Shown piece by piece: positions 15,467 through 55,699 of a DNA stretch of 64,000 nt. Source of the DNA: a virus. The stretch's first letter is position 1; each line of letters begins with the position of its first letter. Position numbers and translations under genes: made by a program. The stretch is from positions 32,001 to 96,000 of IMG/VR virus record IMGVR_UViG_3300048592_000962; one strand, 5' to 3'. The notes beneath the pieces were generated by a model. That model saw only the letters and a list, made by a program, of their open reading frames with translations, ran no database searches and was not told where the DNA came from.

Positions 15467-16066
15467 ATGCCGATGCTCCGTCGATCTCACTACCAACGTC
15501 GCTACAACGCTGCGGTCGGAACGGTCGAGCCCTACCGAGGGACAGACCAGACGGTCGCGGTGATGTCGAGGCTCGTCCGCGACATACGTCCGCGTCAGAT
15601 GATTTCGACGGCGTTGGAGAGCGAACGCAGTCTGAAGGTGAGACGTCACACGGAGCAGATCGTCGGCAACATCCGGCCGAAGGACTACAGCTCCGAGATC
15701 ATCGCCATCTGCAAGTGGTGGGGCAACGCCGGCAGGTACACGAGAGATCCGCTTCACGTCGAGATGCTCCGAACACCAGAGCGTTTGATCGATGATGCGA
15801 TGGCCGGGAAGCTCGCGGCGGATTGCGATGAGTTCGCGACGGCAATCGCGGCCTGTTGCCTCGCGGTTGGGTCCAGGGCTCAGTTCGTCACCGTCGGATT
15901 TCAGCCGAGGCTTCCGGGTCAACCGAAGATTCACACGCACGTGTTCTGCCGGGCTCAGGACCCTCGAACCAAGGTTTGGTGGGTGCTGGATCCTGTCGCA
16001 GGACGCCGGACCGCTCAGATGCTGAAGCGGGTCAAGCAGTACACGATCTTCGAGGTGGATTCATGA
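15467..16066 (+). CDS. transglutaminase-like (Cys-His-Asp) protein, candidate virion maturation protease
   Basis: ADCDEFA...HTHVF...WWVLDPV triad pattern, immediately upstream of the membrane-protein cluster. Confidence 0.8.
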   Translation: MPMLRRSHYQRRYNAAVGTVEPYRGTDQTVAVMSRLVRDIRPRQMISTALESERSLKVRRHTEQIVGNIRPKDYSSEIIAICKWWGNAGRYTRDPLHVEMLRTPERLIDDAMAGKLAADCDEFATAIAACCLAVGSRAQFVTVGFQPRLPGQPKIHTHVFCRAQDPRTKVWWVLDPVAGRRTAQMLKRVKQYTIFEVDS

Positions 16067-16353
16067 GTTACTACCTCCGCAAGGGACCGATAGGGTCTAC
16101 CGAGCCGATGGAGCTGTCGCCTGCGGCAAGGACCGTCTCGGTGGGGTATCGCGTGGGTGCCGCGGTGGCGACGCCCCTGCTCGTGTATCACGGCTACCGA
16201 CGCAACGAGTCGATCGGCTGGGCTGTGGTCTGGGGGCTCATCGGTGGCGGATTCTGGGTGTTCGGGGTGCCACTGGCGCTCGCTCAGGGGTTCGCGAAGC
16301 GAAAGGTGCGATCGAACGCGAGGCGTCGTCGCACGAGCAGGAGAACGCGATGA
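16063..16353 (+). CDS. small membrane protein with Arg tail
   Basis: MSYY start, hydrophobic segments, VRSNARRRR tail. Confidence 0.8.
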   Translation: MSYYLRKGPIGSTEPMELSPAARTVSVGYRVGAAVATPLLVYHGYRRNESIGWAVVWGLIGGGFWVFGVPLALAQGFAKRKVRSNARRRRTSRRTR

Positions 16354-17198
16354 CGTACGGCGTGATGGGTTTGGGTTTGGACGCGGCGTCGATTGGCCGA
16401 GCGGTGGCCAGCGCCTACGGGACGCAGCGGCCCCCGCCGTCCGCGTCTTCGGGTTCTGCGCCACAGCAGTCGAGTTCGATGGCTTCTCAGATCGGCCGAG
16501 CGGTGGCCAGCGCCTACGGGACGCAGAAGGCGCCTCCGACAGCCACGCCCGGCACCTTGTTCACGAGATCACAGCCTGCGCGAGTCGGTCATGCGGCTGC
16601 GCAGGATCCGATTCTGGGGTCCGCGTCCCTGATGGCCGCGTCTCTTCTTCGACAGGTGTCCGGGCTCCCGGAGTCGAAGAGAATCGACGCGGCACGCAGG
16701 AAGCTCAACGAGATCCACCCTGGTCTCGGGAACACAGCCGTGTCTAAGGCGAAGGAGCTTCGCCGCAAAGGGCGTCCGTTCAACCAGGCGTTGTTCGATG
16801 GGATGCGGCTGGCGATCGCCAATCGCGTGGCCGAGTACACCGCGTCTCGCATGGGTGTCTCGGGACTCGGCGCGGTGAAGACCGAGAACTTGCAGGCGGG
16901 GTTCTGCGCGATGATCGGCGCGGGGACGGCGGGCGCGGGCATGGCGGCAGCTTTCAAGAACCCGACGGCCACCGAGGGGATTCTGTCGTCGGGGCAGGCG
17001 GGGGGTCAGATCGCAGGTTGTGGGGCTGGGACGCTGTCTCAGCAGGCAGCGGCGACGCAGGCTCAGCTGGATGCAGCAGCAGCGGCAGCGGCGGCGAGTT
17101 CGAGTTCGGGCGGGGGCACCTCGCCGTGGCTTTGGGCGGGGCTCGGGCTCGTCGCGATTGCGGGCATCGGCCTGGTGGTGGTCAAGGCGAAGTCATGA
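16350..17198 (+). CDS. putative virion membrane protein (paralog family A)
   Basis: C-terminal TM; DPILGSASLMAA/NQALFDGMRLAIA domain; 33-bp internal repeat at 16395 and 16494. Confidence 0.8.
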   Translation: MTYGVMGLGLDAASIGRAVASAYGTQRPPPSASSGSAPQQSSSMASQIGRAVASAYGTQKAPPTATPGTLFTRSQPARVGHAAAQDPILGSASLMAASLLRQVSGLPESKRIDAARRKLNEIHPGLGNTAVSKAKELRRKGRPFNQALFDGMRLAIANRVAEYTASRMGVSGLGAVKTENLQAGFCAMIGAGTAGAGMAAAFKNPTATEGILSSGQAGGQIAGCGAGTLSQQAAATQAQLDAAAAAAAASSSSGGGTSPWLWAGLGLVAIAGIGLVVVKAKS

Positions 17199-53437: not shown

Positions 53438-53862
53438 CAGACGCGAGCCGGCGCCGTCCACACCGCGTTCGCGGCGAACCCGATGGCCGCGCCGAATACC
53501 GCGCCGAGCAGAATGCGACCCGTGACGCCGCCCACGGCGCCGGCCGCGGCGCCGCCCAGAACTGCGGCGACAGCAGCCGTGTTGAGCCCGTCGTTGAGCC
53601 GCTGGCGCCACGCCTGCGCGAAGTCGGTGCTGCTGCACGCAGCCTCGGTCAGAGGACCGACGCCCAGGCCTCTGTACGGGTCTCGACCGTACCGCATCAC
53701 TGCTGGTGTACCTGTCGCGAAGCTCCCGTGCTCGACGTAGGGAGCCAACGGGAGCCCCGCTTCGAGGAGCGGTTGCACCGAGGGTAGGCGGCCGGTCGGC
53801 GTCGTCATGAAGCTGATCTGTCCCGGTACCCACTTCGCTTGCCCCATCCCTCCGTAGCTCAT
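53437..53862 (-). CDS. glycine-zipper membrane protein
   Basis: MSYGGMGQ, YRGLG, Gly/Ala TMs. Confidence 0.75.
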   Translation of the reverse strand: MSYGGMGQAKWVPGQISFMTTPTGRLPSVQPLLEAGLPLAPYVEHGSFATGTPAVMRYGRDPYRGLGVGPLTEAACSSTDFAQAWRQRLNDGLNTAAVAAVLGGAAAGAVGGVTGRILLGAVFGAAIGFAANAVWTAPARV

Positions 53863-54851
53863 CGTCGCCTCCTGTTCGCGGTCAGCTTCCCAGCTTCGCA
53901 CACATCGGTCGGAACGGGGAGCCAGACGCCACGGGCGTTTCGATAGAACGCCGCTTCGCAAAGCAGTAGCTCGCCCTTCACCATGACTTCCGGGCGATCC
54001 ACCGCGTTGCGATCTCGAAGGGCCCAAGGGAAGCCCCAAATCACCTCGTCCTTGCCCCCAAAGAGACGGAGCCAGTCCGACGCGATCGTGTCCGCCTCAG
54101 AATCGATCATCAACTCTTCGGCGTAGTCGCTGCCATCCCAGTATTCGATCACAGCGTCAGGAACCAGCTTCTCGACGGCTCTGATGAAATCGGCCAAGTC
54201 ACCTTCTGGAACACGAGACCGACCGACATCTCGAAACGAACCAAGAAATCTGGCATACAGCTCGATCAGCTCTGCCGCAGCGTCCATGTCGTACTGAGTG
54301 CCGAATTCTGCGATCGCCTTGATTTGCTCGGACACCTCGTCCGCCAGCAACTGCTCGATGAGTTTCGTGGGGATCTCGTCCGACTCTTCGTCCCACTCGA
54401 TCTGCTCTACCAGTGAGTCCTCATTGACCATTGACTCAGCCGCTCGGTACTGAGGTTCTAGGTCATGCACACGAAAGGCGACCTGCTCCGCGACGTCGAG
54501 CAGGTAGCTCAGACGAAATGCGACCGCCGGGTTCTTTTGCGCAATGACCCCGTGTTCCCCGTGGAACCCCGACGTGTAGACGTTGCACGGGGTCATGAAG
54601 ATGTATTCGTCGTCTCCTGCGATCTCGTCACGCGGAAAAATGAGCCCTTGTCCGCCTCCCCACTTCTCCCTTGCCTGCGCACGAGGGAGAATCGAGGCCG
54701 CGTCGCGCATCAGATCCATCAGCGCAAACTCGCCTTCGTCGTAACCGGACACCGACGTCAGCACGTGAAAGACAAGCGGATCGTCCTCTGTGAAGGGAAT
54801 CTTCCGCGTGTCGTCGTAGGTGTACCCGACCCATTCGACGTCGCCGCTCAT
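53859..54851 (-). CDS. acidic hypothetical protein with LTANRRRR tail
   Basis: 330 aa, coupled. Confidence 0.8.
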   Translation of the reverse strand: MSGDVEWVGYTYDDTRKIPFTEDDPLVFHVLTSVSGYDEGEFALMDLMRDAASILPRAQAREKWGGGQGLIFPRDEIAGDDEYIFMTPCNVYTSGFHGEHGVIAQKNPAVAFRLSYLLDVAEQVAFRVHDLEPQYRAAESMVNEDSLVEQIEWDEESDEIPTKLIEQLLADEVSEQIKAIAEFGTQYDMDAAAELIELYARFLGSFRDVGRSRVPEGDLADFIRAVEKLVPDAVIEYWDGSDYAEELMIDSEADTIASDWLRLFGGKDEVIWGFPWALRDRNAVDRPEVMVKGELLLCEAAFYRNARGVWLPVPTDVCEAGKLTANRRRR

Positions 54852-55699
54852 CGGCTTCCCTTCCTGGCCATGTCATGGAGCACGAGCATGACCTGCTCGA
54901 TCACCTGGTCGCTATCCCAGTAGTCGTCCGCGAACTCCACGGGCTCAGTTTGTGCGGGGTGCTTGAAGTGACCGAAGACCAATCTCTTTGCCGCGTCCTT
55001 CACCTGGTTGCGATACCAGCCTCTCGTTATCAGTCGCGGCGATTTTCCGTAGTTGTCCTGCTTGGCAATCAGCCACGCTTCGCTGATCCACTTGACCTCT
55101 TCCGCGCCGTGGCTCTTCACGAGGGCCCGAGCCTCTGCCTTCGACACGGGAGGCGCGTACCTGGCGTTGGACTTCAGTCCTTGCGTTCGAATCAGATACT
55201 TCACGGCGTCAGCCAGTCTCTCGAAGTCTCGCGGCTCCGCGGTGGTCCATGGGACAGCGCGGAAGAAGCTGTACCCGTCGTAGACGGTTCCGACGCCCTT
55301 GCCCTCGATCGTGACGAAGCCGCGATCGATGACCGCACGTAGCGCCCTGCCTTCCACTCGTATCTCCAGCTCGTCTGCCGGAACGAGACGCACGGTCTTG
55401 CGGCCACGTCGGCTCGATCTCTGCTTGGTCGTCCGCCTGCGCTCGTTGGCAATGAGTTCCCGAGCCGAAACCTTCTTCCCTGCGAACACGTTCCCCAGCA
55501 CGGCTCCAACGGACACGCCGACAACGAACCCGGCTGCCATCGTCAAGAGCTGGGTCTTCACGTACTCCCGCATGTCGACCGTCGGCACGGCGACCCAGCC
55601 CCGCTCTCTCTTCGGAGAAGAAAGCTCGTGCAGCAGCGTCGGCGCGACATCGGAAGGGAGGCTCGCGACGGGAGGGGCCTGTCCCAGGTGGTAGGTCAT
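54848..55699 (-). CDS. membrane protein with two post-TM domains
   Basis: MTYHLGQ, TM, LIANERRR, LKSNAR. Confidence 0.8.
   Translation of the reverse strand: MTYHLGQAPPVASLPSDVAPTLLHELSSPKRERGWVAVPTVDMREYVKTQLLTMAAGFVVGVSVGAVLGNVFAGKKVSARELIANERRRTTKQRSSRRGRKTVRLVPADELEIRVEGRALRAVIDRGFVTIEGKGVGTVYDGYSFFRAVPWTTAEPRDFERLADAVKYLIRTQGLKSNARYAPPVSKAEARALVKSHGAEEVKWISEAWLIAKQDNYGKSPRLITRGWYRNQVKDAAKRLVFGHFKHPAQTEPVEFADDYWDSDQVIEQVMLVLHDMARKGSR

Follow-up and report, generated by a model that had tools for sequence, protein, structure and literature searches.

A short sequence element, in which an asparagine is preceded at a fixed distance by a hydrophobic residue and followed by a run of arginines or lysines, recurs in a gene cluster of a large uncultivated virus and is common to the tails of its small membrane proteins and to a protamine-like core protein. 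The element was examined in a 64,000-nucleotide window (bases 32001-96000 of the 159,872-bp IMG/VR record IMGVR_UViG_3300048592_000962), and its existence, its specificity for Asn, its grammar and its conservation are directly apparent from the sequences. The best overall explanation is a portable protamine-like unit whose boundary, [VMLI]-x-x-N (hereafter h-x-x-N, h being V, M, L or I), would most likely be a maturation-cleavage site; this reading is tentative, somewhat short of an even chance. In what follows, h at position -3 relative to Asn is termed P4 and Asn is termed P1, a caret in a string marks the position after Asn, and positions are window coordinates unless marked as genome.

An Asn/Arg unit common to membrane anchors and a core protein

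Genes were re-called with a codon model, and transmembrane (TM) segments were judged by Kyte-Doolittle windows and by helix lengths in AlphaFold2 (AF2) models. The gene call gave a tight plus-strand operon of open reading frames (ORFs) that end in or contain the motif. Together with an Arg/Lys run, [VMLI]-x-x-N was found in 13 ORFs of the window and in one elsewhere in the genome, mostly just after a TM helix (Table 1), and in the listed TM carriers it is preceded by a hydrophobic segment with a 19-residue Kyte-Doolittle mean of 1.3-2.5. All the motif strings quoted by an earlier, sequence-only reading of this DNA lie in frame where it had placed them. LLRNGS is doubtful as an instance, its minus-strand ORF (44126-44500) overlapping a better-scoring plus-strand gene and having no Arg run, and VKRNRG, IVANVKK and VYKN are weak ones. 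Two carriers were absent from that list, the soluble protein at 53859-54851 and the protein encoded at genome 138695-139642. Since the former carries a unit without having any TM segment, the Asn/Arg unit is portable.

The tails follow a common grammar, which consists of the TM segment, two to four basic residues (often with Pro), [VMLI]-x-x-N with R, A, S or P at P2, an optional P/T-S, and 4-10 Arg/Lys, often with T-S-R-R. In all TM carriers, 2-4 Lys/Arg stand directly behind the TM segment as a stop-transfer cluster on one side of the membrane, and h-x-x-N with its Arg run is extra to this cluster. Where a further domain comes after the tail, the Arg run ends in another h-x-x-N right ahead of that domain, as in MKPN...LREN, VTSN...MRPN and VRAN...LVGN here and in VAAN...LTPN, VTPN...MRMN and VRAN...VSRN in related viruses; in relative G001, the tail orthologous to that of 24671-25183 reads VRAN^RRKRRRS...VSRN. 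Such a tail corresponds to one copy of the repeat found in the core protein, N-S-RRRR-S-RR-T-S-[V/M]-R-R-N, and the motif is thus common to both kinds of protein, as the sequence-only reading had held.

Residues 1-650 of the core protein contain 176 Arg and 50 Lys, an Arg-rich composition that would suit DNA binding; the remainder comprises three helices, repeats of Gly/Ala/Tyr and a C-terminus that is conserved. V, M, L or I stands at -3 of all 23 Asn of this Arg-rich region, where the four residues together have a frequency of 12%. Over the whole protein, h-x-x-N was found at 26 of the 29 Asn (binomial p = 2e-18), where about 20 sites had been claimed previously; the three sites claimed in the core paralogue were likewise found (IRMN, LKMN and LVRN). 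Four of the core sites are not independent because they come from an 84-bp tandem duplication (28639-28793, 1.8 copies, 98% identical), which is recent and shows what appears to be an expansion of a 14-residue Arg unit by slippage or recombination. The remaining core sites lie in unrelated local contexts.

Table 1. Genes carrying the h-x-x-N + Arg/Lys unit and associated genes (window coordinates unless marked; aa, amino acids; nt, nucleotides)
Position	Strand	Product	Motif or tail	Remarks
15467-16066	+	199 aa, transglutaminase-like Cys-His-Asp enzyme, candidate protease or cross-linker		first gene upstream of the carrier array
16063-16353	+	96 aa, single-pass, TM 55-73	KRK-VRSN-ARRRRTSRRTR	motif at nt 16306-16317
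17917-19326	+	469 aa, weak C-terminal TM	VYKN^RKK and IVAN^VKK	weak Lys-type tails
19331-19624	+	97 aa, single-pass	PKY-MKSN-GKKKK	
19626-19949	+	107 aa, single-pass	KKK-MASN-RRKRRK	
19946-20836	+	296 aa, TM 180-198	KKP-VTSN-RRQRARRR-MRPN, ~70-aa domain, VSKN-ILRRRSARR	Arg run between two motifs
20840-21382	+	180 aa, single-pass	KRKP-VSPN-RRRRRRSRR	
21379-22095	+	238 aa, TM 117-135	KS-MKPN-RRRRRR-LREN	~90-aa C-terminal domain
22092-22652	+	186 aa, single-pass	GKKP-VTSN-RRRRARRRR	
24671-25183	+	170 aa, N-terminal TM 19-37	GP-VRAN-RPRRNPK-LVGN	C-terminal domain
28057-30771	+	904 aa, protamine-like core protein	23 h-x-x-N sites in first ~650 aa	first ~650 aa R/S/K-rich
30822-31565	+	247 aa, core paralogue	IRMN, LKMN and LVRN in a short Arg arm	LVRN exactly at arm/domain junction; 63 homologues
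35813-36736	+	307 aa, putative capsid protein		206 homologues, none named, metagenomic, 60-95% identity
42414-43772	+	452 aa, PcfJ-like soluble protein	IKSN^RGARR	weak, C-terminal
45440-46126	+	228 aa, C-terminal TM	AKK-LNAN-KRRRRSSRR	reference family for orthologue analysis
46715-47089	+	124 aa, single-pass	RP-VKRN-RGTAKK	weak motif
53859-54851	-	330 aa, acidic soluble protein, no TM	GK-LTAN-RRRR	C-terminal
54848-55699	-	283 aa, TM 51-69, spacer	LIAN-ERRRTTKQRSSRRGRK	~190-aa domain follows
genome 138695-139642	-	315 aa	ends TM-PKPVTSN^RRRRRR	outside the window, 50 kb downstream

A second class of tails was also observed, in which the TM segment is followed directly by RRKK, KRRR, RRKRR or RRRR without Asn (ORFs 22686, 23365, 23832, 26158, 62726, 116102 and 125489); the genome therefore encodes about 20 small proteins whose ends are poly-basic and follow one or the other of two grammars. 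Both the tail ending R-R-T-S-R-R and the S-R-R-T-S of the core repeat offer the kind of basophilic phospho-site context known from protamines, baculovirus P6.9 and the hepatitis B virus (HBV) core protein. A kinase-like gene (55768-56649, plus strand), with a sub-threshold Pkinase match (E 0.003), an HSDNxxxN loop and a D-I-G motif, adjoins two carriers.

Chance, codon and paralogy controls

Outside the core protein and its paralogue, the pattern [VMLI]..N.?[RK]3 was observed 13 times, as compared with 1.0 +/- 1.0 in 300 shuffles within 30-residue blocks (maximum 6), a procedure that preserves Arg-rich patches. Within the core pair, the same shuffles predicted 0.27 occurrences and 10 were observed, so that the excess ranges from 13-fold to 37-fold. 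When N in the pattern was replaced by S, T, Q, D, G, H or P, 0-4 matches were obtained in non-core proteins and 0 in the core, most of these residues being two to four times commoner than Asn. Of the 28 non-core [RK]4+ runs, 10 are preceded by Asn (position -1 or -2), with V/M/L/I in register three residues further upstream. Block shuffles and residue swaps together rule out a composition artefact of a high-GC, Arg-rich genome.

A repeat at the DNA level has also been ruled out as the cause, as AAC and AAT are used for Asn at their genome-wide ratio and all six Arg codons occur in the runs, CGT being the most frequent. Similarly, whole-protein paralogy of the carriers was rejected by all-against-all BLASTP, in which similarity is confined to the TM segment and the tail. 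Because the codons vary and the likeness is limited to these parts, the signal lies at the protein level rather than in a copied DNA block, with selection acting on the protein. As a separate observation on codon usage, CGT accounts for 36% of Arg codons in the runs vs 15% genome-wide and CGC is depleted (for instance at 21341-21370 and 28600-28800), which may avoid GC-only repeats or hairpins or tune translation.

Conservation in related viruses

The C-terminal TM protein at 45440-46126 was followed in related viruses. In four other viruses, its orthologues are 42-56% identical and end in VKSN-R8, VSPN-R5, ISAN-R5 and LKAN-RGRRRKRR, as compared with LNAN-KRRRR here. Among 96 metagenomic homologues of this family, Asn precedes the Arg run in 51 of 51 orthologous tails, none of which has G, S or D at the same position, and V/L/M/I stands at -3 in nearly all of them. 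Spacer, P3, P2 and run length all drift, and 30 of the 51 tails end in T-S-R-R or T-S-R-R-R. One homologue (P0396) bears the JGI name 'LPXTG-motif cell wall-anchored protein', probably an automatic call from the TM segment and basic tail, as no sortase-type motif is present.

At the arm/domain junction of the core paralogue, both Asn and a V/L/M/I at P4 are found in 41 of 41 aligned homologues, down to ~43% identity. The sequence-only reading had staked its motif on conservation of Asn in orthologues, and in both families this conservation is complete. In core orthologues of two relatives, the -3 rule holds at 18/24 and 16/22 Asn vs a V/M/L/I frequency of 0.11. The TM tails of distant relatives keep the order of TM segment, linker, Asn and Arg run, with P4 being sometimes P, A or S.

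A companion family, made up of proteins that match the N-terminal third of 45440-46126 and have their own C-terminal TM, is informative about the nature of the unit. After the helix, 21 of its 45 members have a plain RRKR end, and in the other 24 V-K-[P/A/G]-N and an Arg run are added behind the RRKR cluster. This split indicates that the Asn/Arg unit is an optional add-on to an ordinary positive-inside anchor and not the anchor itself. The carriers might still be regarded as plain positive-inside anchors of paralogous TM modules, possibly host-membrane proteins, in which Asn was inherited without being functional; basic residues behind a TM segment are indeed the textbook positive-inside pattern, many proteins of this genome end in TM-RRRR without Asn, and the restriction of carrier likeness to TM and tail suggests a shared module. 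This explanation is nevertheless very unlikely, as the motif recurs in the Arg arm of the core protein, which is not a membrane segment, and at the end of a soluble protein, the unit is added behind an existing basic cluster, and Asn stays constant while its neighbours, the spacer length and the codons drift.

A boundary that may be recognized and cleaved

DNA binding is probably the role of the Arg runs, and it is the natural one given their Arg/Ser composition, the capsid-like neighbours of the core gene and the apparent lack of a packaging motor. The carriers would be located in the virion. With slightly less assurance, yet still on the favourable side, h-x-x-N may be assigned a specific recognition role, because Asn cannot be swapped, the hydrophobic residue stands at a fixed distance and the same signature occurs at both ends of the runs. 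Proteolysis at Asn is a further step, plausible by analogy at somewhat less than even chances. A protease site of the P4-P1 type would be the simplest single explanation, analogous to the sites in adenovirus pVII and pX/Mu and to the gp21/gp175 motifs of large phages.

The 904-residue core protein is built from many Asn/Arg units, and the membrane proteins each have one unit, or one bracketed unit, appended behind an ordinary basic stop-transfer cluster. In the mechanism that can be proposed, Arg runs lying on the viral DNA would couple the condensed genome to virion proteins anchored in the membrane, the virus apparently having no packaging motor. At the unit boundary, h-x-x-N would act as the recognition site, with a hydrophobic P4 and Asn at P1, and cutting at Asn would free oligo-arginine peptides and detach the DNA from the proteins that anchor it, as in adenovirus pVII and pX/Mu processing. 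The complete scenario, in which a motor-less tailless virus encapsidates a 160-kb genome by means of oligo-Arg units from about a dozen membrane proteins and a 900-residue polyprotein, excised by a novel Asn-specific activity, is doubtful when taken as a whole. The excising activity might be the conserved transglutaminase-fold enzyme encoded next to the array or an autocatalytic Asn cyclisation.

An unlikely, though appreciable, alternative is an uncleaved structural boundary. Asn with a hydrophobic residue at -3 would then be a turn or helix cap (Asx-turn or Asn-Pro turn) that sets the Arg runs apart, and the tails would remain on the membrane proteins and bind DNA or acidic lipid to them, like S/T-P-K/R-K/R motifs or the SPRRR repeats of HBV. 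Several observations speak for such a boundary, and the first three of them also weigh against cleavage. P1' is Pro at 6/23 sites of the Arg-rich arm of the core protein, a residue disfavoured at this position by most endopeptidases, and some homologues have VRSS or MRTS, not VRSN, as the first site in the arm of the paralogue. No match to legumain (C13) or caspase (C14) was obtained in six-frame searches of the complete 159,872-bp record with PF01650 and PF00656 at E <= 1, a host enzyme being possible. In addition, the AF2 model of the paralogue has a helix at residues 27-37 that stops exactly ahead of N38, although with low confidence, followed by helices at 44-72, 79-100 and 102-124. Cap and turn positions, on the other hand, normally tolerate S, T, D or G. 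In the 51 tails and 41 junctions Asn is invariant, and S, T, G and D in its place do not yield the pattern. A cap would also leave unexplained the obligatory hydrophobic residue at -3 (23/23) and the identical signature at the N- and C-terminal ends of Arg runs, and the motif at both ends appears to fit one recognizer better than two helix-cap roles.

Alternatively, h-x-x-N and its Arg run might serve in docking or packaging, as a short linear tag that a viral partner (the capsid inner face, a subcapsomer protein or a poly-Arg chaperone are candidates) binds without cutting and by which it recruits the carriers or their cargo. The strict conservation of Asn and P4 is what would be expected of a recognized motif, unrelated domains stand behind the bracketed tails, and the unit is both portable, as in the soluble acidic protein, and optional in one orthologous family. 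This possibility is improbable even so, as no candidate partner protein has been identified, about 26 copies in one core protein better suit a repeated functional unit, and the tail of the soluble protein at 53859-54851 is missing in the G001 orthologue.

Returning to cleavage at Asn, other points also tell against it. Residues 271-431 of the core protein form a long K/S/R stretch without any Asn, and in the core protein of the most distant relative, the 298-kb virus, the -3 rule holds at only 13/29 Asn, with S-R-R-N units dominating and P4 being often Ser or Pro. The putative capsid protein (35813-36736) shows no avoidance of the motif, with a hydrophobic residue at -3 of 3/7 Asn, a comparison that is uninformative. 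Two last difficulties concern the preference of the neighbouring enzyme and the membrane topology.

The enzyme encoded at 15467-16066 gave, when searched alone, a weak Transglut_core match and 937 homologues. Of the homologues aligned, 40/49 match Transglut_core (PF01841, best E 1.3e-16); H158 and D175 never vary, and C120 is retained by at least 90%. Three complete related viruses encode versions of the enzyme with 67-70% identity, and it is conserved as strongly as the capsid-like protein. The top PDB matches in a profile search were transglutaminase-like putative proteases, PNGase and the LapG-type 4u65, all of them weak (E ~0.01), and a designed Kelch repeat retrieved by a single-sequence PDB search was dismissed as spurious. 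No second Cys-His-Asp enzyme was found in the module, Peptidase_C5/C57 not having been searched for elsewhere in the genome, and the enzyme might be a candidate for acting on h-x-x-N. A predicted complex with residues 1-60 of the paralogue arm scored 0.01, which counts neither way. Three of its homologues (P0185, P0186 and P0187, 68% identity) are 375-541 residues long vs 199, with two matching stretches split near residue 125, just past the catalytic Cys, which suggests an intein-like or other large insertion.

A dozen proteins begin with M-[S/T]-Y-x(1-5)-L-G-[Q/L/Y/S/M/F] (ORFs 15083, 16350, 19626, 19946, 20840, 21379, 23365, 23832, 39077, 54848, 62726 and 63097), and LGQ occurs 22 times in the proteome vs 10 expected. 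This N-terminal signature looks like a leader, a processing site or a Gln-donor site, and M-[S/T]-Y-x-L-G-Q may be the real target of the enzyme, through proteolysis or Gln cross-linking. Since papain-like folds usually read P2, the L-G-Q signature would suit this enzyme better than h-x-x-N.

As regards topology, the sequence-only reading had proposed a two-sided code with a Gly motif, [LM]G, and the Asn motif on opposite faces of the membrane. In single-pass proteins the two do lie on opposite sides, which follows from geometry and adds little, but [LM]G is absent upstream of the TM segment in three carriers and occurs inside TM helices as well. Its companion argument, that three hydrophobic helices reverse the order in the core proteins, is not secure; the helices are of TM length in AF2 models (29, 22 and 23 residues), but their hydrophobicity is only 1.1-1.8. 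According to the positive-inside rule of von Heijne, Arg tails lie on the cytoplasmic face at insertion. In a pinch-off of the PRD1 type, this face would end toward the capsid and not the DNA (PMC6356626), so that the tails would point away from the DNA if the virion membrane forms in a PRD1-like manner, which again weighs against the proposed mechanism. In the model for PM2, co-assembly involves an interaction of the nucleic acid with an area of membrane that is specific to the virus (PMC6356626). The tails would face the DNA only under PM2-like co-assembly, budding or an open-sheet membrane, and by analogy the absent motor would fit the PM2 model better than PRD1 pinch-off.

Genome and structural-module context

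The source record has direct terminal repeats, is rated 100% complete and has a G+C content of 62%. Searches of large ORFs in the window and in the rest of the genome against PHROGs and Pfam returned no terminase, portal, HK97 capsid or tail protein, and no A32/FtsK-type packaging ATPase was matched in six-frame searches of the complete record with PF04665 and PF01580 (E <= 1), although a divergent ATPase could escape. The PHROGs and Pfam matches comprise helicases, an integrase, a transposase, thymidylate synthase, a Mu Gam-like protein, PAPS-reductase/DUF3440, ParB-like, PcfJ-like and DUF932 proteins, a DnaJ protein, a peptidoglycan amidase, glycosyltransferases and a methyltransferase. A bacterial host is indicated by the peptidoglycan amidase.

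The AF2 model of the putative capsid protein at 35813-36736 (mean predicted local distance difference test score 66) consists of a long N-terminal helix and an eight-stranded jelly roll. Its fold matches are weak and mostly to viral jelly-roll capsid or cement proteins (Z <= 8.3, Foldseek E >= 1.8e-3; SPV1 6oj0_T, Z 7.2). The Arg/Ser-rich core gene lies directly upstream of the jelly-roll capsid-like genes, an order that is syntenic in relatives; those of 62 kb (a fragment), 161, 171 and 298 kb have in common the succession of core protein, core paralogue and three beta-rich proteins. The lack of terminase, portal, HK97, tail and ATPase matches, the jelly-roll capsid-like protein and this syntenic order suggest that this region serves as the structural module in large, apparently tailless viruses of bacteria that form an undescribed lineage. 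The small TM proteins arrayed in this module lead us to infer a lipid membrane inside the virion.

Other genes are found within such modules. A PAPS-reductase/DUF3440 gene and a ParB-like gene (32670-35690) lie between the first and second jelly-roll-like genes; as the jelly-roll-like genes are adjacent in relatives L021, L022 and L024, the segment is an insertion into the capsid module. In L024 (114 kb), a histidine kinase (HisKA/HATPase_c) and two response-regulator genes (3925-5937) are located inside the structural module, between the membrane-protein array and the core gene. Tandem Repeats Finder, applied at its default score to the range 27500-49000, reported nothing at 47805-48351, a gap for which a 'TIGR-like' array with a period of 36 bp had been proposed. 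Single-protein searches of viral contigs with 30822-31565, 53859-54851 and 45440-46126 gave no match; alignment-query and whole-genome searches did recover relatives.

Comparison with known systems and significance

Pfam, PHROGs and NCBIfam contain no model for the carriers or the core proteins. The sequence-only reading knew of no described system of this kind, and full-text literature searches similarly found no account of the motif or the virus group. In type, the element belongs with viral Arg-rich genome-binding motifs and processed core proteins, from which it is set apart by its Asn rule, by being fused to membrane anchors and by occurring in a bacterial virus.

Adenovirus provides the closest parallel for the proposed cleavage. 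Adenain, a Cys protease of clan CE, cuts at (M/I/L)-X-G-G^X or (M/I/L)-X-G-X^G (the caret marking the cut here), and the cleavage of pVII and pX/Mu is proven, releasing small basic peptides and loosening the core. Both viruses have Arg-rich proteins that condense, or here would condense, a double-stranded DNA (dsDNA) genome within a jelly-roll capsid, a putative one in the present case, and both have a short site with a hydrophobic P4 (M/I/L in the adenain consensus) and encode a Cys enzyme; the virion context of the adenovirus core proteins has been described (PMC4189039). Unlike adenain sites, h-x-x-N ends in Asn at P1 and lacks Gly at P2, so the adenain consensus is not obeyed, and unlike in adenovirus, the enzyme is transglutaminase-like, the carriers are membrane-anchored and cleavage is a proposal.

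Large tailed phages offer a second parallel. The T4 gp21 motif is L/I-x-E and the phiKZ gp175 motif S/A/G-x-E, and the T4 capsid-targeting sequence lies next to its own cleavage site. The virus examined here resembles them in having one short motif that recurs across many proteins (head and internal proteins in those phages), and differs in that P1 is Asn and not Glu; T4 and phiKZ are tailed HK97-fold phages with serine-type prohead proteases and N-terminal tags that are not poly-Arg.

The SPKK/SPRR turns of sperm histones, the SPRRR repeats of the HBV core and baculovirus P6.9 form another set for comparison (PMC7412469, PMC12159748). As in these proteins, a small, polar turn former breaks up the Arg runs, and Ser/Thr in R-R-x-S/T could be phosphorylated. 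Unlike in SPKK/SPRR, Asn takes this place and a hydrophobic residue is obligatory at -3, there is neither enrichment of Ser/Thr/Asp nor replacement by them in the 51 tails, and the unit is fused to membrane anchors; a functional resemblance is possible.

The Portogloboviridae member SPV1 is described as having a single-jelly-roll shell, an internal membrane and a nucleoprotein core (PMC8459092). The architecture suggested here would be the same, with a jelly-roll capsid, membrane and subcapsomer proteins, and a basic protein wrapped around the DNA. SPV1 is, in contrast, a 20-kb archaeal virus, as compared with 140-300 kb and an indicated bacterial host, and the fold match is generic (Z < 8); the h-x-x-N/Arg motif is not mentioned in the summary account of SPV1 (PMC8459092). 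Finally, LPXTG, PEP-CTERM and GlyGly-CTERM proteins also have a TM segment followed by a basic C-terminal cluster, but their signature precedes the TM segment and the basic cluster is featureless, whereas here the signature lies behind it. Such sorting domains (sortase, exosortase or rhombosortase) were rejected, since nine carriers gave no NCBIfam match at E <= 0.1 except a sub-threshold SepX/GlpR.

Arg-rich genome-binding tails and processed core proteins are features of eukaryotic viruses and of a few archaeal viruses. To our knowledge, they are not known in large bacterial dsDNA viruses, which are thought to depend on ATP-driven packaging. A simple rule with good statistical support, conserved in the related viruses examined, connects the membrane-protein array with a protamine-like core protein, in a lineage that is widespread in metagenomes (>200 capsid-gene homologues) and for which no packaging motor was detected in the searches described above. 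The motif provides a sequence handle for recognizing virion proteins of this lineage, and a handle on adenovirus-like core maturation in phages and on the coupling of DNA to an internal membrane. If Asn is indeed P1, the motif would define a new viral protease specificity, and the system would be a prokaryotic counterpart of adenovirus core maturation.

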